A DNA stretch of 63,343 nt, the filler included, from Hausera hauseri (Eukaryota), in assembly GCA_046269625.1 (NCBI GenBank). It is 12 parts of 12 records of this genome, joined end to end, with 100 filler letters (N's around TTAATTAATTAA, not from the genome) between each part and the next. Parts side by side here need not be neighbours in the genome. Positions count along the whole stretch, not along the records: positions 15,374 to 21,121 come from JBJURY010195748.1; 11 more parts are not named here. One strand, written 5' to 3'. Below the pieces are notes generated by a model that made no database searches, was not told the DNA's origin, and was given only the letters and a program-made list of their open reading frames with translations. Each line of letters starts with the position of its first letter. Positions within the stretch are counted from its first letter, which is position 1. Below are positions 1,064-49,812 of this stretch, in pieces. The position numbers and the translations under genes were made by a program.

Positions 1064-3928
1064 ATGAAGACGGTCCAAAGAGTCGGCAGAAATGGAAATT
1101 TAGTTTGCTTCACCTGCGGTAAAGAAGGACACATTGCACGGTCATGTCCGAACCAAAGTAGCGTTTCATTTACCGAACCTCATAGGACTGGTATGATAAA
1201 AGTCAACGAGAACTTAGAAGCAAAATATGTTGTTCGCGGAGATACGGGTACTATTCTCGACATACAAGATTTGAGAAAATTTCTAGATGCTCAACCTGAA
1301 ACCACTAATCTACAGGTTTTGACGGCCAGAAAAGAATATGGAGATAAATTAAGATTGTTAGAGGTGTATCATGGTTTAGCAGAACCGAAAACTGAATACG
1401 AGTACGCAATCGCACCTGAGCGAATTGAGATGATGCGAAAAAAGAGTATTCCGACAAGTAATAAAATAGCAGATGAACCAAGAACTTCGACAGAAGTCGA
1501 CTTAGATGTAGAACCTGAGTTCACGGTTGAAAGGGTAGATAAGACTACTAAAGAGGATATAATTGAAAAAGAATTCATGGAGCCATTAATACTTAAAAAT
1601 AGAGGCCGCAGCTCTTTACTTAAAACGAAACGTAGAAGTGGTTCACGTTCGCAAGTGACTACAGAGAAAATAGAAAAAACGAAAAATGCTCACATTGCTG
1701 TAGAAAGCGATGTAGAACCTAACTTAAATACACCAGAAATTGGCCCATTCACACCTATTAAGGTAGAAGAACCGGTAGAGTCAATTAATGAAATTAACGA
1801 GATTTGCCCACTTCCAACCAGTGAGGAAGAAACGCAAAATATTGATGATTTTGATCCAAGTAAGTGGAAAGTCCGACGTTCGTGGGAAAATGCCAATGAG
1901 TTAAAGAAAATGAGAATTAGATGTCACAACCCAGAAATATTACAACGTAACTTGGAAAGGCTTAAGCAAATCAGGGAACAAGTAGATATATCCGGTAAAG
2001 AACAACAATTTACTGAGAGATTATATAAAAGTTTAAAATTATGTAGTGAAGGAAAATTCGATGATGCAATCGATTTAGGACAACCTGAGGAGCGGCCACC
2101 TGAAACATTAATAGAATGGAAACGTGAATTAGAATCATGGATTAAAAGTTGAATCAAATTTTCAGAAGGATGGAGCAAAAACAAAGAAAGTGTTGGTGAA
2201 AAACTTACTAAAGCTCGAACGCTATTGTCTACCTTAAAAACTAATCAAAAACTGAAAAGAGTAGTTTGTAATTTAGAGCGTATGGTGGATGAAATTCTCT
2301 GTGCAGTGATTAACCGGCTTACAGAAAAACCGGTTAGCAATCAAAGTGATATCGATCCAGAAATATTGGGTATAGACCCAGTAGACATTCACCCTTAATG
2401 GAGATGATAAAAATCGCTTTCGCTGTACTCAAACAATATACGAACCTAGAGAATCGTATCAAAATGGAAAATGAAAAGCGATAACAAATTTGAAGTTTGA
2501 GAAACCGAATTATGTTTCTCAATAACGAGGAAACCAAATACGTAATAAAAGCTTGTATCATAGAATTTGACGAATATAAGGATGAGTTTGATTATGTCAG
2601 CCGGATTATGAATTTCATAAAAGGTCCAGATGACGAACTAAAGGATGCATATAAGGTACTAGACAAGGCTATATTGGCAAAGCCAATAATCGCAAATCAA
2701 TTGTCGGAATGGTCCGAATTAATAATGTGACTAAGTAAATTAGTAGAAGACCGTAGGAAAGAATTTCCAGAAAGCGAGCCTTCTATAGCGAAACAATTAG
2801 AAGAAAACACACGTAAATTAGATACAATAAAAGCAGAAATAGATATTCGAACTCAATTTGAGACATTACGACGGTTAAATTTTATGAAGAAAAAGAAACA
2901 AGCGACGATATTGCAAGAGATTTATAAAATGATCGAAGAAACAAACTTTACAGAGAAGCGAAATATGATTTGCAATTTTTACCCAAAATTGAGGAATATT
3001 CGGCTAAAAGGAATCCAGTATCTAACAGCAAAAGCTATAGACGAGATTTCAACGCAAAATATCGAAACTCTAAATATTTGTGCCGAAAACAAAGCGGTTA
3101 TAGAAGAGGCAATAAGATACATACGAAAACCGCAAGAATGGATGGCCGGAACCGATCAGAACTACCAAACCGAGTTGACTAGAATTAGAAACGATCAACG
3201 TCTCAGTCTCGAAGAATCTCAGCTCGTAAAGAAACTGCTCGATACAATAGACCCCGACTCAAAAATCATAAATCAAATGTACGAATTAGCCTTCCTATTA
3301 GTAGAAATGGCAGAGATTAATGACGAGAAAATGAGGCAATTGATGCCCAAACTACAGCAAGTTGAAGAAACATGTATTAGAACCAAGCAAGGAGCAATGA
3401 GATTAGACGAACTGACAAAATAATTTGAAATCTACCGGAACAAATATGCTTTTACCGAATCAGAAATTAAAAATAAGCGAGAATTTGTACAAAGATGGCA
3501 GAGACGTAATTATTGAACTAACCGATTATCACCAAAAGGGATTCATTAAAACTAATGAATTAGGCGAACTGCTGAAAATGATTCAATATGCCTGTGGAAA
3601 CGGAATAGGATTTCGGACCACGCAAATGAAGGAAATACAGCCCATGCTAAAGGAAATTTGAGAGAATTCACAAAACGTAAGCACAACACTAGTGCACCAT
3701 GGACTTCCAGACATTGGAAATGAACCAGAATGGGATGCGTACTTAGATACATTAACAAGCGAGGATCTTGTAACTCCGGTACAACTAAATGAAATAGAGA
3801 CGTATCCGCAGAATAGAAGATTCAATGTGGAGATGCTCCTATATTCAGCGCTAACTGAAAAGGATCTCATCGAACTAATTGACGTGAACATTGCTGAAAG
3901 CAAACTTAGACAACTTATTCGACCTTAA
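1064..3928 (+). pseudogene. Gag CCHC knuckle followed by about 900 codons of unknown, helical-looking polypeptide broken by stops and frameshifts
   Basis: CFTCGKEGHIARSC at 1106-1147. Consecutive ORFs 1064-2152, 2497-2730, 2884-3423, 3425-3661 and 3692-3928 align with ORFs at 37792-38878 and following. Confidence 0.75.
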
Positions 3929-4002: not shown

Positions 4003-4242
4003 ATGAAAGTAATGATATGATCCGAGTGGATGGAGGAAAAAGAATGTGAGCTAACTACTTATTCCTATGTAAGGGACGTAAAAGAATGGTTAATAAATAA
4101 TGGTGGAACAAACGAGTTAAATTATAGAATCTACTTTAGAGGTAGAATACTAGACGATTTAGAACAATTAATAGACATCGGGATAATCCCCGATGAAACA
4201 AATCGAATAGTAGTGATAATAGCCAATGAAAAGACAAAATAA
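4003..4242 (+). pseudogene. Ubiquitin-like domain inside the family A polyprotein (no C-terminal GG)
   Basis: MKVMI*SEWMEEKECELTTYSYVRDVKEWLINNGGTNELNYRIYFRGRILDDLEQLIDIGI resembles ubiquitin TIENVKAKIQ...[21 protein letters not shown]. Confidence 0.7.
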
Positions 4243-9054: not shown

Positions 9055-9081
9055 TGTATTCAATATACATCTTCCATTTTA

Positions 9082-9099
9082 TGGTAGCAGAGCGCGGTT
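9082..9099 (+). promoter_or_regulatory. Primer-binding site, complementary to the 3' end of initiator tRNA-Met
   Basis: TGGTAGCAGAGCGCGGTT a few nt after a putative LTR end (..ttcca). Metazoan tRNAi-Met ends ...CUCUGCUACCA. Confidence 0.8.
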
Positions 9100-9112
9100 A
9101 GGGCTCCGCACC

Positions 9113-11248
9113 GTGATCCGCGTGTACAAACCACGTGATGTTTTGGTCTTTCGAGGTATTCTGTATGTCCGTCTTCTCGTTTTCGGAACTTGTTCACTCC
9201 GTTTTAATGTTAAAGCAAAGGCGAGAATCCTCTACAAAATATGCACGGTGAGGAGCTATGGGGAAATGAATAAAATGAAACGCCCTGACTATTTTGCAGA
9301 GGTTACGCTAAATTGGAGAGTCGTGAAATCTTGCGCCGAAGGCGATAAAAAATTAGAAGATATATCGAGGGTCTATGAACTTGAACAGCTAGAGAATAGA
9401 CCTCAGCGGATAGTTTCACCTGTAACAGATCACAAAGAAACATGTTGTAAACGGCTCGCGTTTGAGGCAAGTGACCGTATATTATTGAACAAATTACAAA
9501 AAGGCATTGGATGTCCAGAACTTCAAGTTGTGGAGAAGCAGTATGAAAAGCTAAGTGAAGAAGCACAAATTAATTATACAAATTCAAAGAAAATATCAAA
9601 TCTTTTTGAAGATAGGGAATTAGAAGGAGTAGAATTACCGTATCAAATAGGAAGAATAAATGGAAAGGCGGTAAACGAGATTTCCGAAAACAGAGTTGGA
9701 GAAATAAGAAAACAGGTAATCATACGTTGTGGCGGAGGTAATTCCGTTGTAGACTTAACGGAACCTAAATTATATTGGGACCTAATTGGGAATATAAAGA
9801 AAACCTTGAGGGTAACTGAGGAGTTCAGTCTATTACATGCCGGAAAACCGCTACAGTCCAATGGAGCAGTGAAAAGCCTAAAACACGGCACAACAATTCA
9901 CTTAACGTTCCAGCTAAGGAGAGGAAGCGAGATAACAACGGATAAACTCGAAGAACATATTGCCGAGCGACGAATACCCATAAATGAATTGCCTTTGATT
10001 TGAAGATTGATGGATGTGAATTTAAACGAACATGATTATAACGTATTCCATCAAAGTTATGTAATCTTTTCGAGTGTACAAGAGGAACTGTGTGTATTGA
10101 CAACTGCAGCCAGGAAATTAAAAACGAAGGAGAATGTAACATTAATAGAGAATGAAATAGAGAAATTAGACGAGCAGAACGAAAAGATCAACGCAGTTAT
10201 CTATGAGAGAAGCTTAAGGGAAAGCAAATTGGCAGTTAATACAATAAAAGGCGTAGACAGTGGTATAAAGGAAAAGGTCATACTGCCGAAGTTACAGAAG
10301 TTAGAACTCCCTAAGTTTGGCGGTGTAGTCACAGAGTATGATAAATGGAAGAGAACATTTGATACCTGCGTTCATAAGACATCAATGTCTGACATATACA
10401 AACAATTGCAATTAAACCAATGCCTGTACGGAGAACCGAAGAGATTAATTGAAAACTTCGACCTGTCTGAAGAAGGCTATAAGGCTGCAATGGGAAAACT
10501 TGACTCTTATTATGGGGGAGAACAACGGTGTTATGCTGCCTTCATGACCGAAGTGATGCGTTTTAAACCAATCAGGGAAGAGGACATCATAAGCCTAGAT
10601 CGATTTGTTGCTTTGTTGGATGGCATAACAATAAGATTGCAAAATTTTGGAAGGAAAGAAGAATTAGGTGGAGGATGATTATATCAAAGTCTTGTAGAGA
10701 AACTCCCAGAATCTATAGTATTATTATGGGAGATATGTCGCCGAAGAGGCTAAATCGAACGGTTGAAAATTTGAAAACTTGGGTGGAGTCGGAAGCGAGC
10801 ACACGGAGGAGCACCATTGAAAGAATTAGAGGTATCAACGTCTTTAATACGTTCGAGGCTAGATCGCCGTCAAGATTTGGAAATGAACATAAATTCGATC
10901 AAACAACTAACAATCGTTCCAGAGTTGAAAATGCAACGTTCGGAATCAGGAGACATGATAAAGAAACACGGAAGAGTTTTTACATAGATAGACAACCTAA
11001 TCAAAATGAGACCCGAGTTCAAGATAAGAAGAGGTAACAGCGTTAAAACAACAAATAAGAACGAGGAAATGCTTTATTGGGAATTTGAGGAGGGGACTTG
11101 TAAATTCGGGAATAATTGTAGATTCTTTCACAAGAAAGAAAAGAAAAATGAAACACGGATATGTAAATACTATCTGAACGGAAATTGTAGGTACGGAGAA
11201 AAATGTAACTTTACTCATAAATTACCGCTAAAAAGGATAATTTTATAA
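9113..11248 (+). pseudogene. gag: BEL/Pao Gag: N-terminal region, ubiquitin-like domain, coiled coil, DUF1759-like capsid, two CCCH fingers
   Basis: LPKLQKLELPKFGG...KWKRTF...LNQCLYGEPKRLIENF...GYKAAMGKLDSYYG; UBL at 9710-9925; CKYYLNGNCRYGEKCNFTH. Confidence 0.85.
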
Positions 11249-15373: not shown

Positions 15374-17689
15374 GATGTCAATATGCACGGATTCGAAACG
15401 TAATGTGCAGGTAAAGTGGAATAAAGGTGGCTTTAAATGTTTAGTTGTTTTGTATTTTGGCATGCCACACATTCCTTAACCCATGCCTGCACATCAGAAC
15501 GCATTGACGGCCGTATTACTTGTAGATGAAGTAGACAAAAAGTGGCTTTAGCACCAAAATTGTGTAACGAATGTACGTTGTGAAAAGCTTGCCTTTGCAA
15601 CGATGGTGCTAGAATTATTACGGAATGGCCTGGTTTGTAGGTGTCTAAAGCCACACCGTCAACGATTGTGCAAGACTTAATAGACTTAGGCATGTCTTTA
15701 GCTGGCTGGTTCTGTTGAAGTTGATCTTGCGTAAAAATGGGGACAAAATTAATCGAAGTAACCGACCAAAATAAAAAATCAGCAACTAAATTGTTAACTC
15801 CGTTAATATGTTTAATATCGAAGTTTAATGTTGATAAGTATGATATTTGACGTTCTTGGCGTGTGGAAAAGTGTTTCATGACCATGATGTTAAGTAAGGG
15901 CTTGTTATGAGTTTGTAGAGTAAAATGATGAGCTACAAGTAGGTGTGAAAAGTGCTTTAAGGCGAGAACGATTGCCAATAATTCTCAATCAAAAGTGGAA
16001 TATTTGGTTTCAGGTGCTGTTAGTTTGCGAGAGAAAAATTCCAGTGGTTGGTTTTTTCCTTTGTAGATCTGGTGGAGTACAGCGCCTACTGCAGTGGTTG
16101 ACGCGTCTGTGGTGAGGATACGCTCTGCATGAGGCTTGGGAAAAGCAAGAATATCAACGGTTTTGATGCCTTCGCGTAGCTTGTCAAATTTGTAAACTAG
16201 TTTAGGTGCCCACTGAATTGTATGATGTTTTTTGCCGCCACTTAGTTGTGCGAATGGTGATGTCAATAACGAGCAATAGGGTACGTATTTATGCACGAAG
16301 TGTAGTGTGTTAAGGAAGATACGCATTTCAGTGGTTGTACGTGGCAATTGGATGCTTTAAGGGCTTCAACTCGGTCTGACTGGGGAGAATAACCGTCTGG
16401 TGTGATAATGTGGCCTAAGAAGTTAATTTGTTTTTTGAAAAAGTAGAATTTGTTTAAGTTAATCTGGAGATTACAGTGGTGAAGACGTTGGAATATTGCG
16501 CGAAGGTGTTCTTCGTGTAGTTTGGCGGAAAATAAAACGACTAAAATATCGTCGATATAAGGGTGTGCAAACGAGAAATCGAAAAAAAATGTAATCAATG
16601 TGTCGTTGAAAAGTTTGTACGGCATTCCGCAAACCGAATGGCATAAAGAGGTATTTATAAAGGCCAAAAGGAGTAGTTACAGCGGTTTTTTCTATGTCTT
16701 CGGGTGCTACCGGTATTTGATGGCATGCTTTAGTTAGATCAATGGTGGAATAGATGGTGGTTGAATTAAGGCGATGCAAGATATCCTTAATGAGTGGTAA
16801 AAGATATGCGTCCATGATAGTCAAGTTATTCAGCTGTCAGTAGTCACCGTATGGTCGAAAGTACCATCTTTTTTATGTACAACGTGTAACAGTAATGACC
16901 AAGGGGATTTGGAACGGCGTACTATGCCGAAACGTTCTAGTTTGACAAATTCGGATTCTACGGCTTGTCTACGGCGAGGTGACAGAGGCCGTACCTTTTG
17001 GCGTATTGGACGTTGATGCAGTGTGACTATATGGTGTAAAGTGCTGTTGGCGGGCGTAAAAGTACGATATTTTTTAAGTACGCGTGGACATGATTTGTTA
17101 ATGAATTGCTGTAACGTTTCAGGTAGCTGTAATAGATTCGGTGAAAGTGGTGCAACGTTTTGAGTGGTAGCAGATGCGATGTGTGAGTTGTTAGGTGACG
17201 TGCAGTCAAGTAATATTTGGTGTAAGATGGCTGAATTGAAAATGGTGTTGGTTAAGGTATTTTCGTCGAATAAGTTATCGTTGGTGGAAGTACCACAATT
17301 ATCGACATTGAACTTCGATCAAATGTCAGTATTATTTCAAATTTACGAATAGAATTATGAAAATTCGGATTATTGTTATAAAAAATTGAATTATTCGCCG
17401 ACTTTTTAAAGATTGATCTCCGCATTGCGTGTCGACTGCGCGGTAGTCGAAACGCTATTTACATGTCCAGAAATGTCGCCAACGGTGCCCTTCCTCAAAC
17501 AGCGCTGACTGCAGTCAACCAGTAAGTTGTATTGTGTGATAAAGTCAGATCCAAAAATTGACGACTAAACGTTAGCGACAGGGCAGTGATTGCTGCATTT
17601 AGCTTAAAGACTGCGAGAGATGTGTCGGCGTTCAGAATGTGAAAGAGTGCCTTCGTCAGAGTTTGCCGTGACCTCTGGCCGCGAACTTA
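15374..17689 (-). pseudogene. pol: pol, frameshifted, protease partly deleted
   Basis: ORFs 16471-16824, 16263-16667, 15985-16347 and 15433-15978 carry RT, RNase H and integrase zinc-binding (H..H..C..C) motifs. Confidence 0.9.
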
Positions 17690-19254
17690 GTTGTTTGGAA
17701 AAAGATCAACTGGGACAACTGTGAGAAGTAAGGGCAATATGTCCGTCGTTCGTGTTGGATTAGAAGGTACAGCCAGAGATACATTTACGTGCTTGATTTT
17801 TGAATCTCGCATAATAAATGGAAACAACGATATCCGAGGAAAACTTCTGGTTATAAAATTAGCAACCCAGGCAACATTTCTGAGCATTAGTTTTGCATCT
17901 GCTGCGGTAATAGCAGATCGACGAACGCGCAGGCAATAATGAGCGGTTTTGTGACGGAACGGGTACGGGAAGCGGCAAAACCCCCTAGTCGGGACAGAGA
18001 CAACTTGTTTAGCTTATTGTTAATGTTGTTGATTGTTGCATGTAATGCCATGTTTTCAGCACGTAGCTGATAAAGTTGTTGTTCTACGGATGTAGTGTTT
18101 GATTGTATGTCGTTAGTTGCGACTGCTGCTAAAACTAATGGTTGGGAATTGATAAGTAGGACATTGTGTGTCCTGTCAGCTAATTTGGCCAATTTTTCAA
18201 GCGGCGTAAAACCCCCACGACGGTAAGGAGGGCACAAATTTGAAAAGGTAGGGCATTAACAAAATAGTGGCGCAGAAGATCTGAGTTGTGCTGATTAGTG
18301 ACGCCGAGAGTACGTAAGTGTGCTAACGAGGTGCGTAAGAAGTCACTGGGTTTTTATATCCCCAATGCATTTTCGTTAAAGAAGCGTTGCATTATGGAAT
18401 CAATTGATGGTTTTGTCTGTTTTAATACAGCGTCGAATAATTGGGAAGAAGGGTCAAAGTGTTAAAATATGTCCAGTAAGTTATGGATTGAGGCTTTTAT
18501 AGAGTTTGGGAGAAGATAAAGTAGGCTATGGGCTTTGGATAAGAAGTCTGTGATACCGTTGGACTGCAACCAGAATTGATGGAAGTGGAGCCACGTTTTT
18601 CTGGACATTTCATTATCTATAAAGTAGTCAGTGCAATGTGGAGAAGTACTGATTGGATTTTTGTTTGAAGAATTTTCGTCGGTTGAAGTAAGTGGATGAT
18701 TTGTTCTGGTGTAGTAGAGAATGGGTATAACCTTTTTTGTGGTGGTTGTATCCGTGGTGTCAATAGTTGGTGGAGAGTTCATACCACCACGTATACGGAG
18801 ATGTATATGGAGGCAATTGTGGTTTGACAGAAGGTAAAGGTCCGATCAGGGGTATGATAGTGCCATTATGGGTGAAACAAAAGACAGGAGAATTGAGTAA
18901 AGTTCCAGTCAGGTGTATGATAGTGCAATTATGAGTGAAATAAAAGACAGAATTGAGTAAAAAAGAAAGAGTTACGAAGGGTTGGAATGTGTGGGTATGA
19001 TACATTGAGGGTATAGATGTTTATTGTTGAAAGAAAATAAATGTGGGAACAGTGGTGCGCTCTGGGAGCGTAATGTAGGGCCAACGCCGAAGGCGCCGTC
19101 CGACCGACCGGCGCAGGGTTGGCGGCCTCAACTTCCGCCCTGGCACGGCGGGCATGAAAATGCGGGGTAACCGAATCTTCCTCTTGAGGTGTGGTAAAAT
19201 ACGACTGAGAAGTGCCATCATCGCTGTAGATAATATGATCGTTAAATGGAACAT
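17687..19254 (-). pseudogene. gag: gag with N-terminal ubiquitin-like segment ending RIRGG
   Basis: Capsid motifs (NALGD.KPSDFLR, LLRHYF.NALP, LA.LAD) shared with 46425-47838; tandem CHCC-like motifs near the 3' end. Confidence 0.8.
18846..18962. repeat. Imperfect tandem duplication, about 63-bp period
   Basis: tcagg(g/t)gtatgatagtgc(c/a)attatg(g/a)gtgaaa(c/t)aaaagacag..aattgagtaaa occurs twice. Confidence 0.85.
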
Positions 19255-19506
19255 AAAAGCATAATGAGATTAATTTGGTAAGAATTAGGAGAAAGTGAGA
19301 AATGTATTTTGCATCACACTTTCGATCATCATATGGAGGTTATGGTTGTTTAGGAACATATTAGCAAAAACGATAAAAATATTGTAATCAGGACAACTTA
19401 CATTGGACCATATTGCGGAAGTTCCTTTGCTCAAGCTCAAGGATCGGACAGTTGGTTTGTCAGCGATGACAAGCCCAATAAATTTCCCAACGTATCGATT
19501 GATCTC

Positions 19507-19962
19507 TTAGTTCCAATCAAATAGAGTTTGTATCAGACTGAAGTAGACAGGCAACGGACAACAGCCATTACTAAGAATGCAAGCTAACTCGATAACGATA
19601 TGTAAGTTCGTACAGGCAGTGGCAACATCAGCAGCCTGTTTCTGTTGAATGGTAGAAAAAGCCAACCAGTGTCGAACGTCATCGTCCTCATCAGATTCTT
19701 CGGAACTTGAGGAAATTATTGGTTTTGACTTCAATTTTGTCACCCATTGTTTTTTATTATTCCAATCAACGTCTTCTTCAGATGACAAAGAATTATGTTT
19801 AGTTTTTAATTCAAGCTCATCAGACTTTGACTCAGTGGTTTTCTTCAATTCTCGGACGTTGCTTACGGAAGATGTATTGGAGGTATTTTTGAATTTATTA
19901 TCACGTGTTTCTGAAAAATACAATAGAGTCGAAAAATATTCTAAATCTACATAAATCTCCAC
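19507..19962 (-). CDS. Unassigned ORF with Ser/acidic tracts, possibly a host-gene fragment
   Basis: 151-codon ORF with SSEED and SSSSEESDEDDD tracts; no family recognised. Confidence 0.25.
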   Translation of the reverse strand: MEIYVDLEYFSTLLYFSETRDNKFKNTSNTSSVSNVRELKKTTESKSDELELKTKHNSLSSEEDVDWNNKKQWVTKLKSKPIISSSSEESDEDDDVRHWLAFSTIQQKQAADVATACTNLHIVIELACILSNGCCPLPVYFSLIQTLFDWN

Positions 19963-20887
19963 AATTTGAATATTTTCACTTGAGTTACATATTTACAAAT
20001 AAGAGTCACTGGTCTTGCCGAAAAGATTGTGATTGGTTTAACTGTTATAATTCTCACATACCATAGAGATTATTTTATTAAAAGCCTTTTACAGTGTGGA
20101 TTGACTATGATCGGTACACAGTTATGGCTAGCAGAGGTGATATTTTTAAACATCAAATCAAGAACGTTTGGTCAACCCTCGAAATGTTCGAAAATGGCAA
20201 TGGAATCATAATGATCTCAAAAGAAGAACAGAAGTGTATTAATAGTCAACTCTTCACATTAAGCCACATGTAGACAATTAAAAATCCGTGGTCATGGTAA
20301 ACTAAAATAAACCAAATAACACATACATAATGGATGGTGCCATAAGCACTAGATATATTCCGGGAAAGTTGACCCAAAAGCGAAAACCGTATGACGAATC
20401 AATTATTTTGATACAAACCCAACATTTATGGAATTTTTAACCCAAGAAACGTTAAGTCAGTGACTACCAAAAATCGACAATTTCATTCACAGAAGAGTCT
20501 ATCTTCTTGATTAAATAAACATTTAAAACATGGTTTCGTTTTAGACTAATGGTTAAAATGAGTAACAAGGAACAGCACCGTACTGACGTAACATTTAGAA
20601 GCCCATGTTGCATAATCTTAGTTTTGTTTGCAAAAATTCTGTCCATATTATTAATCATCATAACATTTTGTGCTTGTAGAATCTGTAGAAGTTTGTTGGT
20701 GCTATAAAACTTGCTAAATTAAGCACAACAAAATAACATTTAAGATTTTTGAAAAGCAAAGTTTTGATTTTTCGATGACAGTACGGCTAAATCTTGGATT
20801 TTTCAAACAAATCAATTTGTTAATCGTTTTAGAGATGAAGCTTCGAAAAAATTATCATCTGAATTAAAGTAATAATTCCTCATAGTA

Positions 20888-21221: not shown

Positions 21222-21850
21222 GGTGTTCCTGTCGCGAAATAGTAAAATAATATCCGCATTCTGATGAGAAACCAACGACAAACAATTTGTACGGATTTTA
21301 CAGAATTTCATATTATAGACTGGGGGTAAACCTCTGGAATATTGAGTAAGATCAATTTGTGCTAAACTGATTATCATTGACTTACGAAGTGAAATGGTTA
21401 TAAGTAGGAATCTTATTGTGGAATAAATAATGCCATGACCTAAGTCTTGTGATTCGGGTATTTCCTCACAGACAAAACCGGGGAAAAGTGATGCTGTGCC
21501 AACAATGATATTCACAGAAATGTGTTGGAAAAAAGGAGAACAGATATTATTAATAAAAAATGTAAAAAAATAACTGCCGGGAGAATAGCGCATAAATATC
21601 AATCTTACCCCACCGCGCGCCGGTTTCTCCTGTTCTTGTTTCTCTGCGTCCTGCTTAGGTTTCGAGGTTAGTAGAGTTCATATTGCATGGATTAGATTGT
21701 TAAATTTGTAGAAAAATTCGACGGAACAATGTTTTGCTGTTTTAGTGAGCAGAAAAATTTTAGTGAGTTTTCTAAAGAAAAAGAAAAAATGCGACACACG
21801 CAAGCGGCAAATTGGGGGGAAAATCCACTGACATTGCGTATGTTACATTG

Positions 21851-22700
21851 TTACAATCTTTGTCCCAAATCCTTACAGAGATCATGAAGTTCATCGGCAA
21901 ACACATAAGTCAGAATCCATGTTAGTGTCTCTTTCCAATGTTGAAGATTGCTTTTCAGGACTAATTCGTGCCAATTACGTTTTAGAGCAATGTGAAATAG
22001 ATAGTTTGATTGTTTGTTTTCTAGGTTATGCTCCGAAATTTTCGATTGCGCCATATCAAGCAAGTCTTGACGGCCCGAGTTAAATGTTAACAATGCAGCT
22101 TCGTCATGACTATTTTCAAGAAGCAGTGCATTGATAGCGGTTGTAAAATCTCCGGTCATTAAAGCAACAAACAACGTTATATCTTCATGATCATCATCAG
22201 GCAACAAGTCAATTTTATTAATACTCACATCATCAAATTCGCAATGAATTCTGTCAACTATATCACTATGATCAGTGTCGTTTACTAAAGAAACGTTATT
22301 CAAGTATGTGCCATGAATGTTTTCAGAATCTTCTGATGGCAATCTACCATATCCCAGATATTCTAAAAATGCCGATCGACTGTCTTCATAAAAGTGACAC
22401 TGAATGAATTTCCAAATGTTCAAGTCAAACTGCAGATCTTTTTGATTCGAAAAATCAGTTTCCTTTCGATGAGAAATATCGATAGTTCTCTGATGACAAA
22501 ATTCACGAAGAGACTCTGAATCCTTCATAGCATCGTCTAATTGCTTGGATTTATCAACAAGCAATCTATCGGTGGTCACTTGACTGATCAACACCTTAAT
22601 GTGACCTTCTATTTCAACCACCGAACCTGTCACATTTATACTGTTATTTCGAGATCGTGCGAATCCGTTCTATACAATTGTACAAATTTTCCACCATTGA
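21851..22700 (-). pseudogene. SEC31: Sec31 (COPII outer coat) internal fragment, end of WD40 region plus ACE1 solenoid, intronless
   Basis: GGKFVQL, VLISQVTT, IWKFIQCHFYEDSRSAFLEYLGY, ALMTGDFTTAI, NWHELV..SNLQHWKETL..ILTY...ELHDLCKDLGQRL resemble the recalled Sec31A VFISQVVT...SRGKYLELLGY...LKNWREALAAVLTY...LCDLLGTRL. Confidence 0.85.
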
Positions 22701-22739
22701 ATTCGTCGAAAATATTGGTCATTATTTCATAAATAGCGT

Positions 22740-23800
22740 TTACCTTTGATGTTTCGACATTCCTTAGTCTTTGGCCTTTATTATGCGAATATTCAAATAA
22801 AAAACACTCAACACCGTTCCCGATTTAAATTCGTACGGCTCTGGAAAGTAGTGGCTAATTTTCAATGTTTTCCCATATATAATGAAGGCGTGAAAGTATA
22901 TGGTCTGAAGCCACTCTTAGATAATTTCACAATTTGAACTTGGACAAATTCTCAGCTGGAAAAACCATGAATTGGGGTATTTCAACATGAGACAATTGTT
23001 CTTCCGTTCCCAATTTGAACAATATTTTCGCAATTTTCTCAACAAACGAAAAAAAACGGACAAAATATAGCTTTGAATTCCATCTTACTTATTGCAATGC
23101 CAAGGTCGATTCGTTTGGCTCGTCGAGTGACGAAGAGAGTTCGCAAGCAATAACGACAAAAGCCAATATTGTTACCGAATTGACTGAAATAGTTCAACGA
23201 CATACTACAATACTTTTCCACGTCATTTGTTGAAAATTCAGACCAGGTTTCTTCAAAAAATTTCCAGCAGTTATTGTCAAAGTAATGTTTTAGTCCTTTT
23301 GATTTCATTGCCTTTCTTAATACGTACTTCAATTTGTAATACGATTGAATAATATCAATATGGTGGCAAAAATCAGATGAATTCGGTACCTCATATTCGA
23401 CAACAGAAGACAAGCCTTCCTGTATAAACAAAGAATACATGCGTTTTCGAAGGGCCACCAATAAACTGTGTATGTCTTCTTTAGAGCTTGAAGAACTGGA
23501 TTCAACACAATTTCGCTGATAGGAAAATCCATGAAAAACTGTCAAAGCTGTATTGATTATATCGCCATTTACGTATCTTCTTTCGATATATTTCCACAGC
23601 TCTTCATTTTATTTTGGTGTAAAAGTTAACACACGTTCTGTAATGCTTTGTTTATAAAATTCTAGGCAAAACTGTAAATAATTTGTGATATCTGGCCGAT
23701 TAGTACAAAATTCTGCAAACTGACACCAATGTGGTTTATTGGTATATACCACAATTTTTAATAATTCCATGAGAGAACAAATGCATATCATAGTCAAGCA
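22740..23800 (-). pseudogene. FAM120/asteroid-like protein fragment, disrupted
   Basis: WKYIERRYVNGDIINTALTVFHG...NCVE...IHSLLVALRKRMYSLF...VVEYEV resembles the FAM120/ASTE1 region (H..G.M...L..G....E......L.RPVRQ..YG.L); in-frame stops present. Confidence 0.45.
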
Positions 23801-26699: not shown

Positions 26700-29600
26700 A
26701 TGGACGCAGCAAGAAGCAGCAGCAGGAAACGTCAAGCATTGCAAGCCTTGAGGAATACTTTTAAAACAACAGACATCAGAAACAGCAGCAGCAGCAGCAG
26801 GAACGTAAACCGCCCATTACTGTCAAGTACGACCTGAACAGATCGTACGTGGATATGAAGGTGGACATGTAGGCGAAAAGAGCAACACAATTTAAGGATG
26901 TACTCGCTAATGTGCGTAACCGGCTGGAATCAGAGGTGGTCAAATTCCAACATCACCACCACGGCAAAGTGCAATATTATGCATTTGCAGAATATGAAAA
27001 TCTTCAGGGTGACAGGAACCAATGGTACCTGTCACATCGAGCCGTACAATACTCTGAGAATTTTATTGCCGATGTAGGCGAAAAGCTTCACAAAAAATTG
27101 CCAACTACACAGAAAAAGGCACTGGTTGGAGAATTGTAAAGATTGTCACTCTCGGCTTTATTTTGATTAAGACGAGTGACATGATTTACCTGTCCGGACG
27201 TTCATTCATATCGACGCCAGAATCCTTGAAGCAGTCTGTGGCGGTAGAGAATGTACAAAATACTAAAGACGAAAATCGCTTTATTTACAGCATTCTTGTC
27301 ATATTGAAATATGATCAAGTGTCCAGACATCATGCAAATTGTCCAAAGCAGTACAGTATTTCTGTACGGGTTGGACTACGACAAGTGTTGGATGCCGATG
27401 AAAGTCAAAACAATTCCGGCTTTTAAACGGCGTAATCCGACACTGGCAATTAACGTGCTCCGGTTTAACACAATCGTACAGATACAGGTGGATGAGGAAA
27501 TTTACAAGAATCCTCAAGTGGACATAATTTTCCTCAGTCTAAATCCAATTGGACGCCTAGTAAATTTGTTGCTGTTGGAGAATGAGGAAAAGTTTCATTA
27601 CATGGTCGTGACCAATTTAGACAGATTGTTGAACATGGGGCATGACCAGTTCATCAAAAACCGTATACAGTGCAAATGGTGTCCCGTGTATCTGCATGGA
27701 TTCCGGTCAAATGAGACATGGGAAAAGCATGTGGTGCTGTGCAGGCAAACTTCGTCAGGAACCACAATGTATGTTATGTCAGTCAAAAAGGAGTTGAAGT
27801 TCAGTGCCTGATCAAAAAAGGACAGTCCTGCACATGTGGTGTATGCTGATATGGAAGCAATTCTACCACGGCACAATGTATACGATCAAAAGCACGTTCC
27901 GATTGCCGTCGGTATGTTGCTAGTATTAATAGAAGCCGCTGTATTACGTTTTCCGTGGTTACAACTATATACGTGATTTCTGCAGCAGTTGGAAACCATA
28001 GTGGAAACGGAAACCGTTGCTCTTCGCTGTCACCGATGAATGCTATTTGTGCCACAAAATAATACCGTTTGTGCACAAGAACGGCTCGTGCCGGATCGCG
28101 ACCATTTCACCGGTCGATACTAGGGAGCAGCATGCAATTCATGCAATTTAGCAAGGCGAAGCGACCATTCCGGCCGGTAATCTTTCATAATTTCCGAGGT
28201 TATGACTGTCAACATATTCTTAAGTGGGCCATTAACGGCTTTCCGCACTAAGACCTGTCCATAATCCCAACGACAACGGAGCAATACATATTTCTGTCAA
28301 CACGAGTAAACCGATACCGGGTACGCTTCTTTGATTCATTGCAATTTCCCAATGAATCATTGGCAAAGCTGGTAAATACCTTGCCAGATGTGCCGATAGC
28401 ACTGACGCAGTTCCCCACACATATTGTACGCAGCAAATGTATATTTCCATACGACTTTGCAACATCATATGAGCGACTCCAGACAGCAGAGGAATTACTG
28501 CCGCGATGGACAGGCGTTACAGAACTTAAATATCAAAGAGCACAAGAATCTTGGATAGAGCTCGGGTATAGAAACATGTTGGATTACATGCTCCAGTATC
28601 TTAAACTGGGCGTGTACTCATTAGCTGACGTGTTTCAAGCATTTCAAACCAAAGCGCTGGCGGAAGATAGGTTGGAGCCACTAAAATTTTATTCCATGCC
28701 GGGAATTAGTCGCTGGATCGAGACGCTGAGCTGCTACAAGGCCCGGAAATGTATCGAATGTTTGATGTTAGTATTCGCGGAAGCATGACATTTGTCAAAA
28801 AGCATCAGGTCAGTGCTACCAATATCACATAACTGCTGTATATTGATATTAATAACCTGTAAGGCTAGACGCTTTCGCAACCCTTGTCATACGGTTCGTT
28901 TGAATGAGCAGTCGACAGACAAGATATGGACGACACAATGATCAACCTACCACGAGCAGACATGGCACACTCAGTCGAATACCTGATTGAGGTCGATCTC
29001 GAGATACCAGATGAGTTGCATGATGTTTTGGACGATTTACTGGTCGCACCATTTGACCAATGCCCGCCAGGCTCAAAAGTGAAGAAACTGCTCATGACGA
29101 ATGAACCGAAGCTGAATTACGTGGACTATTGGCGTCTGCTACAGTTCTACATGCAGCTCGGTGTACGCGTCACACAGCTGCATCGTGCAATTCGATTTAC
29201 TCAGGCTCCAATTTTCAAAACGTACATAGAAGGAAATTCGGAGAAACGAGCTACAGCGTGTACAAAGTTCAAAAAGGACTACTACAAGCTGAAAAACAAT
29301 TCCCTGTACGGACAAACCGTAGAAAATTTGAAAAAGCGGTTCAATGTGTATCTATGTAACTCAGAAAAGAGGCTGATTAAGTATACCAGCAAGGCACAGT
29401 TTCGGCGGTCAATGCATATTGCCGATGGATTGGTTGCGTTGCTATTAAACAGGAAAGAAGTCGTTCTGGATCGGCCAAGTTACATCGAGCAAGTAGTATT
29501 GGACATGAGTAAGTTGCGGATGTATGAGCTGCAGTATCGCGACTTGGCCCGTTACCGGCAAATGTTTGACGGTGCAATATTGACATAATTGCCGGTGACA

Positions 29601-42752: not shown

Positions 42753-42883
42753 GGTGGCAAAGTGGGAAATATACAGATAAGGAGGGAAAACGAACACAAA
42801 ATGGAACAGTGTGAATTAACTATATGGTCTTCGTATGTACGAGACGTTGTATTCCTTCATTACTTAACACTCTACTGTAGGTA

Positions 42884-45800
42884 CTAAAAGTGACCGATTT
42901 GATTTTTTTGTGTCGTGGAATCTGGTTGGCAAGTTGATGTGGATAAAACTATGTCGGATATCATAGTTGAAGTTGGTATATTGCTCTGAGGCAAAAAATG
43001 GGCCGGAGATAAAAATGTAAGAGTAAAGGGAAGAAAGGTGGGAAAATTAATGGAAGGAGTTTGAGGGGTAGGTTCTAGTGACGCGGCAGGTGTAGAGTTT
43101 GGAGGAACAGAAATTGGAAAAGGTGGTGGCATCAGGGAAGGTATAAAATTTTTAGTTTGAGGTACATTATAAACGAGAAAGGCGGGCTTTACGTTGTTGA
43201 TGTGCACCGTTAGTTCTTTGCCATCTTTTAGAATAATGGCATTGTGGGAATGTAGCTGAACGACTTTGTAAGGTCCCAGGTACCGTGGTTGGAAACCGCA
43301 TGGTATTTGGTTTCTCAACCAGACGAATTTTGCCGATTATAAATCCTCCGGTAGGTACGTTTTATTATCATTTATTATCCTGCAGAATGAATCTTTGCTA
43401 ACTGAGAAAAAGTGATTTTGTGCCGTTCGAATAGCTTCGTCTCTAAGTGTGTCATCCAACGCAGTTAGTTCAAATAATAAACGTACACGTGTTCCGAATA
43501 ATGCCTCCATATGTGAACAACCTGTGGAAGTAGAAAGGGAGTTACGCCAACCCAGAATAACTAACGGGAGAAAAGCAGTCCAGTTGCTATTGGATTCTGC
43601 GAGGATTCTCATTGACGATTTTAGTGTTCTGTGGAATTTCTCTAGAAGACCATTTGATTGGAGGTGGTATGGTGTAGTGTGAATGTGATTGACTAATAAT
43701 TTGAATAAATTGGACTCAAAATGAGTACCTTGATCCGTAATAATGAACCTAGGAGATTTGTACCTGCTGATCCAAGTGCGTATGAAAACATCGGCTATTG
43801 TGTCAGTGTTAGTGCTCCGTAAAGGGACAGCTTCTGGCCAACGTGAGGCGCGATCCATCATGGTCAAAATGAATTGATGACCGTTGCCAAGAGGAAGAGG
43901 GCCGACGATATCTATATGTACGGACTCAAATCTTGATGTGTAGGGAAGTGATATAATGGTGGCTTTAGATGTTTGGTTTTTTTAAATTTTTGGCAAGCCA
44001 CGCACTCCTTAACCCACGCTTGCACATCAAAACGCATTGTCGGCCATATTACCTGCCGGTGGAATAGGCGAAAAGTTGCCTTCGCACCAGGATGATGTAG
44101 TAAATGTACGCTGTTAAACGCTTGCCTTTGTAAAGGTGGTGCGAGAATTATTACGGAATGACCTGGTTTGAAAGTGTCTAAAGCTACGCCGTCAATGATG
44201 TTGTAAGATCGGAAAGATTTAAGCATGTCTGGAGGTGGTTGGTTTTCTTGCAGCTGGTCTTGTGTGAGTATAAGTTTAAAATTGATGGAGCTAACGGATC
44301 TTGAAAGGAAATTGGCGACTAAGTTGTTTACACCGTTAATGTGTTTGATCTCGAAATTAAACGTCGAAAAATATGAGATCTGACGTTCTTGCATAGATGA
44401 TGGATGTTTCATGGTCATGATGTTAATTAAAGGTTTGTGATCGGTCTGTATGGTCAAACGTCGAGCAGTGAGTAAATGTGAAAAGTGTTTTAAAGGAAGA
44501 ACTGTCGCTAGTAGTTCTCGGTCGAACGTGGAGTATTGAATTTTGGGAGATGTTAACTTGCGTGAAAAAAATTCCAAAGGCTGGTTTTTGCCCTTATAGA
44601 TTTGATGAAGTACGGCGCCCACAGCGGTGGTGGAGGCGTCTGTAATGAAGATCAGCTGTGCATCATGCTTGGGAAAAGCTAATCTTTCGACAGTTTTTAA
44701 ACCTTCTCTTAGCTTTTTGAATTTGTTTACAAGTTCAGGAATCCATAGTATTGGTCGGTATTTTTTTCCACCACTAAGGTGAGCAATTGCTGCGGTAAGT
44801 TTAAAGCAGTACGGCACATACTTGTAAACGAAGTGTAAAGTGCACAAAAAACTCCTTATTTCTGTTGTTGTACGAGGTAGCTGCACGTTTTTTAAGGCTT
44901 CAACTCAGTCGGGCTGAAGCAAGTAACCTTCGGCAGAAATAACGTGGGCAAGAAAATGTATACGTTTCTGGAAAAAGTGACATTTGGCGAAATTAATCTG
45001 GAGGTTATGCTGGTATAAGCGTTGAAAGATTGATCTGAGGTGTTTTTCGTGTTGTTTGGTTGAGGAAGAAATAATTAATATGACATCAATATACGGATGA
45101 GCATTAGGAAAATCGGAAAGGATAGTATCGATGTGGCACTGAAAAGTCTGCGCAGCATTCCGTAAGCCAAAAGGCATGTACAGATATTTGTATGGGCCAA
45201 CAGAAGTAGTGACGGCTGTTTTTTCGATATCCTCGGGTGCCACAGGAATTTAATGGTAGGCTTTGGATAAATCAATGGTAGAATAAATTGCAGTCGAGTG
45301 GAGACGGTGTAAGATATCCTTAATGAGTGGCAACGGGTATGCATCCATTATTGTCAAAGTGTTCAACTGACGATAATCGCCACATGGTCGAAAAGTTCCG
45401 CCTTCTTTTGTACGACATGTAGTGGTGACGACCATGGGGATTTGGAGCGACGTACAATTCCGGAAAGTTCTAGTTCTAGAAATGTGGCTTCAATTGTCTG
45501 TCTACGACGAGGAGATAAAGGACGCACCTTTTAACGGATAGGTCTTTGATGTTGTGTCACAATGTGGTAAAAAGTGGTATTTTCTGGTGTAAAAGACCTA
45601 TCTTTTTGAATAATTCTAGAACAATATACGTGGTTGAATTGCTGCAGACTTGCAGGTAATTGTGAAAAGTTTGGTGGGAGCGAGGAGGTATTACCAGTAA
45701 CTTTGGCAGTATCAGTAACAGTAGCAATTCGGACGTTATTTGGCGGTCGAGATTGAAGTGGTATTCGATGCAGGATGGTAGTATTGAAGACGGTATTGTA

Positions 45801-46427
45801 GCTTGTAGTTTTATCGAAGGATTTGGCAGTGGTAAGAGAATAACTTTCATCGATGTTGAAAACCCAATCGTCAATAGCATTGTTCTTTAGTGATTTATAA
45901 AACAAGGTACCATTGTTGTAAGAAAAAGGTTTGTGTAACAATTTTTTTAATATCGGCTTTCGAGTTGCATTCATCCGTACGACAGCCGAATTTGTGTCGT
46001 CGTAATCGAATCTCTCCTTATTGCGACCAATTGTTAAACAGCGTTGTTTGCAATCGACAAGGAGATTGTGGTACGAAAGAAAATCGGATCCTAAAATAGT
46101 TGTTTGAACGTTTGCAACAGTAAAAGTCTAGTGGAACGTTTGAGTAGATTTAGGGAGGATAAAAGAAAGCCTACTTATACCGGAAACATATAGCGGTTGT
46201 CCGGAAGCTGTAAATAAAGGTTTACTTTTGGATTAAGTGTGTTGAGTTGGAAAGGTAAGCCGTAGTAAAGAAATCGCTGCGCATGAATCGGTAAGGAAAT
46301 CTGTGTTAAGGTGTAGGTATGATGGTGGAGGCTTTTAATGTGAACGCGGCGAAAGAAATTTTTCGGCTATTAAGAAGTAAAGAGTGATCTTCACCAGTGC
46401 TTGCCAAAAACTCTGGCGGCGAAGTTA
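42884..46427 (-). pseudogene. pol: pol (PR, RT, RH, IN), disrupted
   Basis: FRPCGDYRQLN, DAYPLP, IDLSKAYH, MPFGLRNAAQTFQ, TDAS, YSTFDRELLA, TDHKPL, RWPEAVPL, ITDQG, PRYLGPY. Confidence 0.93.
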
Positions 46428-46434
46428 GTTTTTT
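46389..46434 (-). promoter_or_regulatory. Putative -1 ribosomal frameshift signal at the gag-pol junction
   Basis: In-frame A_AAA_AAC then TAA, followed by a CGCCAG...CTGGTG stem; the -1 frame reads LTSPPEF..., homologous to LMPPPEL... of copy 1. Confidence 0.75.
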
Positions 46435-47838
46435 AAAAACGGAGAACCTGAGCGACTGTTATAAACGAAAGTTGTGCGTTTGTTATTTGCATGATGGGAT
46501 TTGTTTTTAAACGTGCAACATGGAATGCATTTGCATGCATTATGTCTGGATTTTGCATGATATATGCAAATGACATTGACCGTATGGTATCTTTGATTAT
46601 AAAATTTGCACCCTAGGTGGCATTTTTTGGCGTTGTTATCAAACTTACCGTGGTAATAGCAAATCAGTAATTGTCTAGGTGAAGGTGAACGACCACGAGA
46701 TACTGAACGGTTACGGTCACGTATGAAACCCTCACGTCGAGTCAATGAAATCTCGTTCAGTTTATTGTTGATATTATTTATTGTTATTTTTAGGGCCACA
46801 TTTTCGGCTCGTAGTTGATTTAACTGTTGTTTGAGTGTAATGTTGTTGGTAGTAATGGCTGCAGAAATGAATGGTTAAGTGTGTGCATTCAAAAGCTCGT
46901 ATGTTTTGTCCGCCAGTTCAGCCAATTTATCAAGTGTTGTCGATTCTTTGACGACAGTAAGTAAGGCTCTAATTTGTATAGGCAATGCGTTCAGGAAGTA
47001 GCGTCGCAAAAGATCAGCGTTGTGCTGTTTAGTCACGCCAAGCGTTTGAAGTATCACAAGTGAAGTTCTGAGGAAATCAGAGGTTTTTGCGTCCCCATAA
47101 CATTGTCGTTGAAGAAACTGTGAATTATTGACTCCATAGATAGTTCAGTAAGCTTTAAAACAGCATTGTAAAGATGGGTGTATGGATCTGCTGGCTGGAA
47201 GATATCTAACAAATCATGAATGGCCCTTTTTACAGTTGTCGGTAAAAGATAAAGCAGATTATAAGCTTTAGTTAGCGGTTCAGTGATGTTGTTAGACTGC
47301 AGCCAAAGTTTATGGTAGCTATGCCAGGTTTTTCTGGACTGTTCGTGGTCGATAAAATACGCCGTTTACTAAGACAAAGTGTATTTGGCTGGCGAGGTTG
47401 AAGAAGTAAAATTACTGAAAGAAGATGGCATGGTAACGGTCGACGATTTTTGGTTAAACCAAAATGTGATGTTTTGGAGGTAGTTTTGTCAGTGATGTTA
47501 ATGGTAGGTAAAGAGACCATTCCACCACGTATGCGAATATGTACGTAAATGGTGATGCAATGGGTTGAAGGTACAGAAAGGTTACGAAGGTTGGCATTAG
47601 TTACTGGAAGATTATTGTATGTAAGATAAAAGTCAGAGATGTTGGCGACGTGTAGTACGTAGTTGTGTAAGTAGGATGAGTTTATGAAATGTGTTATTCT
47701 GTATGTGAGTAAATGGTGATTATTTAAAAAGTATAAAAAGGAAAGAGTCGGTGGAGACCCAAGTGGTTGGTGTGGTATCGGAACACACCATGGCGTAGGA
47801 CTCATTGACTTAGGACAGACGGTTGGGTAGTTGGTCAC
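46425..47838 (-). pseudogene. gag: gag with N-terminal ubiquitin-like domain, capsid region and two CHCC-type motifs
   Basis: HIRIRGG|M; LLRRYFLNALP.QIRALL...LDKLAELADK; CYYHGKFDNNAKKCHLGC and CIYHAKSRHNACKCIPCC. Confidence 0.85.
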
Positions 47839-48374
47839 GCTGTGATGTACTCGGGACTCAACAGCTGTGTAATTCGAACTGTGCGGCAGTTTTGATAAAG
47901 AATCGGTATAACCTTTAATATTTAAATCGCTTTCAAGGATCTGGATAATACCAAATTGTGTTGGACATACAATTATGCTTGTAAGGTGAGGCCTGCTGTA
48001 TTTACGTCAATTTCCCTTAGATAGAGTTTGAAAAGTAGTAATGAATCGACAAGATAATCACCAATTGCTATCTCATTTTTGTATTGTAATATGAAACATG
48101 GTATACGTGCCTGCAGCAGTGGACGATAAGATAGCAAACTTTTTTGAAGTAAATGGACAGGAAAGGTGAAATGAAGAAAAAACTCTAAGTAAATTGACCT
48201 CAGATAGCAACCGCAAGGGAAAGCTAAATTTAAAAAGGGAGATGTTGTGCCAGACGTGTTGAGATCAAAAACGTAATAGAGAAACGGGAAAAAGAAATCG
48301 TTAAGAAGAAGGAAATTAAAAAAATGACTGTCCGACAAATAGGACGCAATGACTAATCCTACCTCATCGTGCGC

Positions 48375-49210
48375 CGGTTTCTCTGGATCTGGAGGAGTTG
48401 CATCCGATCTATGCTGAAAGAAAATCGCGGCGTAATCCATGATAGGCATGATGATGTGAGGGGATTGGTTTAGTTTTCGCACAGTTGCAATATCAGCCGG
48501 TTTGGTTATGTTCAGTGCTTCTTCTGCTTCATGAAGAGCAGGCTCCGCAGCTTCCAATTTTGATTTATTCAATTCCAATTTTTTGTTCCTGTATTCTAGG
48601 GATCCTTCGTTTTTGATCTCTTGATTTGTGAAAAGGAAAGAAATATCTTTTCCTTGTTGACCCGTTGTTCGATACAGTGATTTGAAATCTTCTAAAAAAT
48701 TAGACACATTGTATAATCTAGTAGATGTTATTTGAAATGTTTTGTAACCAGCAATGAATGACGCCAATTTGATCAAAATTTGTTTACCAGATTCACCTAC
48801 CTCTACTAGCAATGCATTCCCATGAGGAGTGCAAATGTTTCTTGATATTTTTAAAAGATGTATCCTGGCATCAACAAGGAAAACGACGTTCATATTCGTC
48901 CCGCGAAATACTTTATTATATTGATCATCAAACATTTTCAAGCGATTTCTCAGTTGATCAAAAGATGCGATAGATTCATAAAGTTTTGGTATTCCAAAAT
49001 CCTTTCCTTGCCATATTCTTCTGAGATTACGCAAAATGAATACGTAATGGTATTTGGCTGGAGTCGGAAGCATTTTAGCTTTTATTACTTGCCAAAGTCT
49101 CCTTGTAACCGTAATACGTTTTTCCACGAGATCTCGAACTTCTGACGTAAATCCGCGTTCAGCGCAGTAATGTCCAGTGCCAGTCATCTCATTTAAACAC
49201 TTGCCCAATG
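48375..49210 (-). pseudogene. DNAH5: Axonemal dynein heavy chain (DNAH5/DNAH8 type) fragments: AAA3 lid, AAA4 and stalk/MTBD pieces joined in frame
   Basis: [35 protein letters not shown]; [29 protein letters not shown]; [14 protein letters not shown]...[11 protein letters not shown]. The paralogue (5 vs 8) is not resolved. Confidence 0.88.
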
Positions 49211-49812
49211 TCGTTCCAATAACACATAGATTATTGTGTCCACTCAGCGGAAGCATTGTTTTCGACAGATGTAATCAACTGAAGTCTACAGACATCAAAT
49301 TTTCATCCTCCTTATTTATATAAACATTAAAAAACAAAGTTTAATATTTCGGGCAAAAGAAAATTTCTTTTATCATAAAATTGCCGTTTTGCTATTTCTG
49401 ATGTCATGTCTAAGTAGATAGATGTGAGCACACTGACACAACCCCCCTTCTGCGGAGAAAAAATATGTGGTTCGCAGATGAGTCATGGGGTATAAAAAAT
49501 TATACACACATACACAGTTAATAGGGCGGTGATAGGAGACACAGTTATGAAAGTGATGCACACAAGCACGCGTACTGCACGGATTTTATGTAGGTGTAAA
49601 ATTTTGAATTTCGCGCCAAAAATTTTTTTGTTTTAATTTTGGTTTTGGTGTAATGTGATTGGTTGATTTGGTTCAATTTTGTTAGTGAACAAAGTATTTT
49701 TTGATCTAATCATAGTTTCACTATTCCCACCCCTGAGAACAAAGCATCACAATTAGTCAAATATTAGATGCATATTAATTAAGTCTACAAAACATCAACA
49801 AAGCACAATTAG

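Follow-up and report, generated by a model that had tools for sequence, protein, structure and literature searches.

Results

A ubiquitin-like spacer precedes Gag in two Ty3/Gypsy copies

The window, meaning the whole 63,343-nt stretch of Hausera hauseri DNA that was analysed, is a collage of 12 contigs with spacers between them, and it contains Gypsy, BEL/Pao and LINE fragments together with a piece of axonemal dynein closest to DNAH5, a content that points to a probable animal host. Minus-strand copies of one Gypsy family were found on four contigs, with 64–75% nucleotide identity. The copy bearing the motif HLRIRGG|M lies on contig 4, and the copy used for comparison, which the original prediction called copy 4, lies on contig 9; identity between the two is 64% for gag and 72% for pol. 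Their features are listed below, with UBL standing for ubiquitin-like domain.

Contig 4
15374..17579, minus strand: remains of pol with RT, RNase H and the integrase zinc domain, truncated where the contig ends
17750..18782, minus strand: Gag, decayed by stops and frame breaks
18780..18803, minus strand: UBL tail and Gag junction, H-L-R-I-R-G-G|M; the 21-residue tail beats 1000 of 1000 shuffles with two UBL profiles
18783..19048 (5′ edge approximate), minus strand: decayed ubiquitin-like spacer in three frames; profile support for the middle, not for the 5′ piece
18834..18961, minus strand: in-frame tandem duplication (60 + 63 nt) in the middle of the UBL, from TRF and unit alignment
19046..19327, minus strand: open leader into the UBL, 98 codons back from 19045; 13 of 2000 shuffles as long
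19510..19992, minus strand: 161-codon open frame farther upstream, with no family match; 8 of 2000 shuffles

Contig 9
42744–42735, minus strand: polypurine tract (PPT) after pol
42820..47520, minus strand: second copy, with Gag (two CX2HX9CX3C knuckles), a slippery A-run and PR-RT-RH-IN
47521..47748, minus strand: unbroken UBL ending H-I-R-I-R-G-G, then Met; top match (E=0.0032) when the six-frame window is searched with the sister-UBL profile
47749..48006, minus strand: 87-codon open leader frame ahead of the UBL; 47 of 2000 shuffles
47973..49274, minus strand: 433-codon frame with a DNAH5 mosaic, which continues into the leader and overlaps the UBL frame

Assignment to Ty3/Gypsy is based on the order of protease, RT, RNase H and integrase after gag and on Pfam matches to RVT_1, RT_RNaseH, Integrase_H2C2 and rve. 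The contig-4 pol is collinear by tblastn with that of an intact relative, P0004, and the aligned pieces hold 16 stop symbols. Two CX2HX9CX3C motifs are present in the contig-9 Gag and in 15 of 15 sister Gags; they are degenerate in the contig-4 copy, where the CHCC-type knuckle region near 17915–17862 has Arg in place of His. The N-terminal piece of the contig-9 Gag matches Pfam DUF7041 with E=0.003, which is under the curated cut-off.

The original prediction placed HLRIRGG|M on the minus strand in frame with Gag, and this reading proved correct: the 24 bases at 18803–18780 (−), CATCTCCGTATACGTGGTGGTATG, encode the motif in a frame that is stop-free from 18845 to about 18465 and that enters the Gag N-terminal domain. 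A single frameshift had been proposed upstream. A break does exist there, but the contig-4 UBL spans three frames with at least two breaks (~19020–18950 and ~18845–18810). The 63-bp tandem duplication described within the UBL was recovered by TRF as a period-63 repeat at 18834–18961 (2.1 copies, 85% matches), but one unit is 60 nt long; the units of 60 and 63 nt match at 53 of 60 aligned positions, and because of these lengths the reading frame is preserved. Translation gives FYFTHNCTII for the unit at 18945 and FCFTHNGTII for that at 18882, and the quoted flank FYFTHNGTII, a blend of the two, is absent from the sequence. The duplication is probably private to the contig-4 copy, because one run X1 contig is 58 nt shorter across it. 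With stops and frame breaks in the UBL, gag and pol, the contig-4 copy is a dead Ty3/Gypsy relic.

In the contig-9 copy the equivalent motif, HIRIRGGM, lies at 47541–47518. As originally claimed, RIRGG|M is identical between the two window copies, with two synonymous and no amino-acid changes. The Gag domain near the junction is identical at 33 of 52 residues (63%), and simple arithmetic then gives a chance of ~0.06 for six consecutive identical residues, such that the window pair alone offers only modest evidence suggestive of selection. Among the 40 of 547 variants listed for run X1, one falls within the motif; it is synonymous and is seen in 61 contigs. Summed run X1 depth, which is not copy number, is 16–437 in the UBL body versus 4117 in the junction bin. 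The low depth over the UBL body fits faster divergence, but the duplication also hinders alignment, and the depth was given no weight as evidence.

Sister loci carry a UBL ending in Gly-Gly immediately before Gag

A Pol search recovered three close relatives at 63–66% and a wider group at 39–45%. An RT motif of the wider group, blind to the GG, fetched 28 loci: three were non-RT, one was another Gypsy element, one repeated the L128 contig and 10 ended before the junction. In the remaining loci, all of which reach the junction, a UBL ending in GG stands immediately before Gag (13/13). Two of these loci, L126 and L127, represent one element, giving 12 distinct elements, and the rows are related by descent in four lineages, such that the counts are not independent. 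Almost all of the 52 Pol relatives consist of Pol alone, and the absence of a UBL match among them says little. Searches with the family pol-linker motifs yielded no loci in viral or metagenome contigs, and the RT motif yielded none in viral contigs.

In an RT tree of 64 rows, a 100/100 branch separates the window family and every UBL-GG locus from 26 other related Pols; the root of the tree rests on two long branches, and its rows include no named CsRn1 reference. The L128 locus consists of two identical element units in tandem that share one LTR with a period of 4965 nt, which is either a true array or an assembly collapse.

The UBLs themselves differ greatly among relatives. Loci L137, L142 and L149 carry near-canonical ubiquitin, and their close relatives carry a diverged F-Y-L type UBL; L143 and L149 are 80% identical in Gag and 17% in the UBL. 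This hints at fresh recapture of ubiquitin from host mRNA in L137, L142 and L149, but the Gag tree, which has no starred branch, speaks neither for nor against recapture in these loci.

The junction is conserved at the protein level

The original prediction suggested per-site conservation across a multiple alignment of the genomic copies as a check. When the 12 sister elements and the two window copies were aligned (14 rows), the only invariant columns were G75 and G76. The 10 full-length sister UBLs share on average 24% pairwise identity in the body and 66% in the last six residues, compared with 56% in Gag. Arg72 is present in 13 of 15 rows and was lost in two lineages (L135 and L144); position 73 is L, I or V in 15/15 and position 74 is R or K in 12/15. 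Within the body, core positions L43, L50, L56, K27 and I30 are retained, the K48 position is K or R in 9 of 11, and Ile44 is retained in three of 11 and lost in the other eight.

The position after the GG holds T, S, M, N or G, and Pro in 0 of 15 rows; the junction di-glycine is present in all 15. All four Gly codons are used at the GG, and ATG follows it in one of 13 sister loci (L135) as well as in both window copies. The comparisons show that the junction is conserved at the protein level and not as start-codon context, because the Gly codons vary and ATG is so rarely the next codon. Neither of the two outcomes named originally as counting against selection, other copies without GG or a nucleotide-level start signal, is found. 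The proposal of selection on the junction thus stands for the lineage; the window pair adds little to it, and the Met that follows the GG is not conserved. Selection acted on active ancestors, not on the dead contig-4 copy.

Primary destabilising residues follow the GG in 0 of 12 elements, versus a 33% background. We set aside an N-degron argument on this basis as weak: the rows are related, three of them have Asn, and all 20 residues can destabilise, according to an excerpt of PMC11441550.

Relationship of the spacer to ubiquitin

Pfam ubiquitin matches six of 12 sister UBLs, four of them above the curated cut-off, and fails to match the other six; the best three matches have E=3.7e-25, 2.1e-24 and 5.4e-20, and three more are weaker. 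Neither window UBL matches Pfam ubiquitin (PF00240), and the window UBLs alone found no match in the PDB. Ungapped identity to ubiquitin is as low as ~13%, and the spacers taken together range from 78% down to that value.

A sister-UBL profile built without window sequence ranked the contig-9 UBL first in the six-frame window, a BEL/Pao UBL (see below) second and the contig-4 tail third. For the contig-9 UBL, 0 of 1000 shuffles reach the score, or 5 of 1000 when the tail is removed. For the contig-4 UBL, 13–18 of 1000 shuffles reach the score of the middle piece, and the profile gives no support to the 5′ piece (754 and 849 of 1000). With a profile built from 96 viral ubiquitins, only the tail of the contig-9 UBL matches (21 of 1000 shuffles with the tail, 495 of 1000 without). 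Direct hhalign comparison of the window UBL with canonical ubiquitin gave 1.8%. A profile of seven diverged UBLs, the contig-9 copy included, matched the near-canonical set at 93.9% and, among the 60 PDB rows listed, hit only ubiquitin, ISG15, ubiquitin variants and an OAS chain.

A structural model of the UBL has strands and helices in the order anticipated for a beta-grasp fold, E-E-H-E-H-E (pLDDT 63); single-sequence AlphaFold prediction was uninformative (pLDDT 46). Foldseek placed ISG15 among its top eight rows (E 0.17–0.75, TM about 0.4), and VIA-align did not have a UBL among its best 50 listed, all with Z<5. At the profile level, the spacer is homologous to the ubiquitin family, because the profiles of its sister relatives, not direct searches, connect the two; support outside the tail is weak in the window copies.

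Searches of the PDB, word-indexed proteins and phages with window UBL and Gag pieces gave no match. A TRAPPC13 lead from the ESM Atlas (0.78) for a window piece was discarded, and a further ESM Atlas query returned no match. Out of 1.84 billion proteins, phmmer matched a single one, a bacterial MBG-repeat protein, which was rejected because its score adds up weak repeats.

An open leader runs from the LTR into the UBL

The UBL frame is open upstream for 102–350 codons in seven of seven long-leader loci, a length that 0 of 2000 dinucleotide shuffles reach in each case. The long-leader DNA is 54–82% AT, and its other frames hold 6–28 stops. Four further loci, in which the leader is cut by the contig end, are open throughout (11–113 of 2000 shuffles). 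A PPT, LTR start and primer-binding site (PBS) are visible in five sister loci, on contigs where an integrase end comes ahead of the LTR and which may reflect an assembly collapse or a tandem assembly; a PBS is visible in a sixth. In these sisters the open frame begins inside the LTR and passes through the PBS, whose sequence is TGGTGTCAGAAG, presumably that of tRNA-Leu. In all six loci where a PBS is visible, the first in-frame ATG is upstream of it, and 1–10 out-of-frame ATGs lie between that ATG and the UBL. Counting against the reading that translation starts there, other ATGs precede the in-frame one in four of the five loci with a visible LTR start.

Depending on the element, the PBS falls in any of the three reading frames. 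Of 78 pairs of leader peptides, two match, both at the PBS. The selected feature of the leader is thus the open frame, not the peptide. Membrane anchors in the leaders beat shuffles in one of 13 (the contig-4 copy, 2 of 300). The 161-codon frame at 19510..19992 (−), which has no Pfam match above cut-off, is possibly a remnant of a translated leader.

A PPT and TG start are visible 3′ of three window copies; neither a PBS nor a pair of LTRs was located in the contig-4 and contig-9 copies. A GC-rich block at ~19060–19190 (−) in the contig-4 leader is found in far more run X1 contigs than are its flanks; it is missing from the contig-9 leader, and its fold is not significant (z −1.2).

UBLs in other elements of the window

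A similar layout occurs in a second superfamily, on another contig:

9055..9928, plus strand: BEL/Pao element in which 218 open codons lead into a UBL with the tail ...QLRRGS, followed by a DUF1759 gag

The open frame is matched by 0 of 2000 shuffles. Its UBL matches Pfam ubiquitin with E=0.017–0.036, 0 of 1000 shuffles reach its score with the UBL profiles, and the element carries DUF1759 and Peptidase_A17 by Pfam. The copy is decayed, and its UBL tail is RRGS, not GG. Contigs 1 and 8 carry another LTR family, the third, whose long coiled-coil ORF1 has a UBL at its far end, at 4021–4239 (+); this UBL matches Pfam ubiquitin with E=0.0045, has no GG and is reminiscent of Burro.

Discussion

Comparison of these loci demonstrates that the predicted ORF1 of a Ty3/Gypsy lineage with CHCC-type Gag is arranged as leader-UBL-GG|Gag. 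We consider it probable that translation starts in the LTR and that host deubiquitinases cut after the GG, thereby freeing Gag. Translation would begin at an LTR AUG near the 5′ end of the transcript, and the ribosome would read through the cis-acting leader, whose peptide would be free to vary. Host deubiquitinases would then recognise the UBL and cut after Gly-Gly, so that Gag, and the Gag-Pol produced by −1 frameshifting, would both have a fixed N-terminus. Such a spacer could uncouple the start of translation from the start of Gag in AT-rich leaders that hold out-of-frame AUGs, and selection would retain the UBL fold and tail while the remainder drifts. An excerpt of PMC3692480 describes co-translational cleavage after Gly76 when ubiquitin links two polypeptides, except where the next residue is Pro.

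Alternatively, the cut may take place for the sake of its other product: the released leader-UBL-GG might be charged by E1 and conjugated to proteins, or might divert the host ubiquitin system as a decoy. Activating enzymes also read the R72-x-R/K74-G-G tail, the K48 position is kept as K or R in most UBLs, and three elements carry near-canonical ubiquitin. However, such a role seems unlikely given the frequent loss of Ile44, a body of only 24% identity, N-terminal leaders that are unrelated to one another and the two lineages that lack R72. That the cut is made by the element's own aspartic protease or by a non-deubiquitinase host protease, with the UBL as a relic, is very improbable: processing of Gag-Pol by the element's protease is standard, but the residues after the GG vary while the UBL core is kept, and a short protease site needs no folded domain. 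We give hardly any credence to a nucleotide signal (start-codon context or an RNA element), or to chance between two copies, with Gag starting at Met. This explanation draws on the ATG after the GG in both window copies and L135 and on the ~0.06 chance for the pair, and it is at odds with the rarity of that ATG among the sisters, the use of four Gly codons and the one listed run X1 variant in the motif, which is synonymous.

The UBL could instead remain on Gag uncleaved and serve in folding, ESCRT or membrane targeting, or proteasome control. Internal UBLs in Burro and in the contig-1 family set a precedent, and non-cleavable ubiquitin on HIV Gag restores budding (PMC9703124, in the excerpt consulted). 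Yet the same excerpt describes removal of cleavable N-terminal fusions by deubiquitinases in cells (PMC9703124), and uncut Gag would bear 100–350 random residues. A retained domain also offers no reason for an invariant GG while the surface drifts, and the contig-1 UBL has no GG; we regard this alternative as quite unlikely.

The usual assumption for LTR retrotransposons is that the 5′ leader is not translated and that the element's own protease processes Gag. The lineage described here seems to translate the LTR end and the PBS and to leave the first cut to host deubiquitinases. If host deubiquitinases make that cut, the element would depend on the host ubiquitin system and be controllable through it, and its LTR would be freed to carry pieces of host genes without harm to Gag. 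The spacers, from 78% to ~13% ubiquitin identity, form a natural series in which the minimal requirements of deubiquitinases could be explored. A search of titles and abstracts in the open-access literature found no description of a natural ubiquitin-Gag retrotransposon, and a Repbase annotation is possible.

Host hydrolases free the N-terminus of BVDV NS3 behind a ubiquitin insert. Cytopathic BVDV carries captured ubiquitin or a UBL in frame before viral NS3, as before Gag here (PMC2850149 and PMC13517609, like the other sources compared below, from excerpts). The BVDV inserts are sporadic and recent, derive from host sequence and occur in an RNA virus, whereas the present spacer is fixed across a deep retrotransposon lineage, is far diverged and would remove a 5′ leader. 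The ubiquitin reference technique and natural ubiquitin precursors share the order of upstream polypeptide, ubiquitin, residue X and protein (PMC3692480); the technique is engineered and the precursors have ubiquitin as their product, whereas here the domain appears to be a linker in a mobile element.

Among mobile elements, the closest counterparts are CsRn1-like Ty3/Gypsy elements (CsRn1, PwRn1, AgCR and Boudicca), with which the lineage shares the CX2HX9CX3C knuckle, a DUF7041-like capsid, a −1 frameshift gag/pol overlap and the PR-RT-RH-IN order (PMC2582038). Our elements differ in having two knuckles rather than one and in carrying the UBL-GG and a putatively translated leader before Gag; the word ubiquitin occurs 0 times in the main text of PMC2582038. 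The PBS of CsRn1 is that of tRNA-Trp (PMC2582038), which the sister PBS, if it is that of tRNA-Leu, would not fit. Since the PBS may differ and the tree has no named CsRn1 member, the element is filed as CsRn1-like and not as a CsRn1 member.

The giant Gypsy element Burro of planarians likewise holds a Ubi2/SUMO-like domain in ORF1, but downstream of Gag among cargo domains, and the excerpt describes no Gag release (PMC6431247). Ginger, Helitron and other transposons with OTU or Ulp1 proteases share a link to ubiquitin; they encode a protease, whereas the lineage here encodes a ubiquitin-like substrate (PMC2836005). LTR-mediated capture of host mRNA fuses intron-less host pieces in frame, as in the dynein mosaic, and by analogy is a plausible route for the capture of ubiquitin. 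The reported chimeras interrupt the element, whereas here the captured sequence is upstream of an intact gag-pol order and appears to be co-translated (PMC5131818).

A broader and doubtful extension of the deubiquitinase reading is that the LTR and leader form a translated cargo bay, in which captured host mosaics such as the dynein would be made with every Gag and released as cargo-UBL-GG, perhaps to be conjugated or to act as dominant-negative decoys. The Gypsy and BEL/Pao arrangements would then have arisen independently in the same hosts.

Additional observations

The contig-9 mosaic at 47973–49274 (−) contains three non-adjacent DNAH5 pieces (axonemal dynein heavy chain residues 2743–2804, 2889–3034 and 3274–3344) in one intron-less frame, just upstream of a shared 155-nt block. 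This block is common to 21485–21636 and 48235–48390 (score 92, best shuffle 39) and resembles an inverted PPT plus LTR start, and in three of six comparisons no more than 2 of 300 shuffles score as high. From these two examples, the block may indicate LTRs whose ends are long and inverted and after which an inverted PPT takes the position expected of the tRNA PBS. On contig 5, at 21851–23608 (−), two host-like open frames lie between an LTR start and the inverted block; neither matches Pfam or the PDB, and one of them looks Sec31-like. Elsewhere in the window are a fragment of a protein-primed-type DNA polymerase B at 27308–29588 (+), an endonuclease-RT LINE at 55022–58095 (+) and a 95-bp tandem array at 53087–54056.
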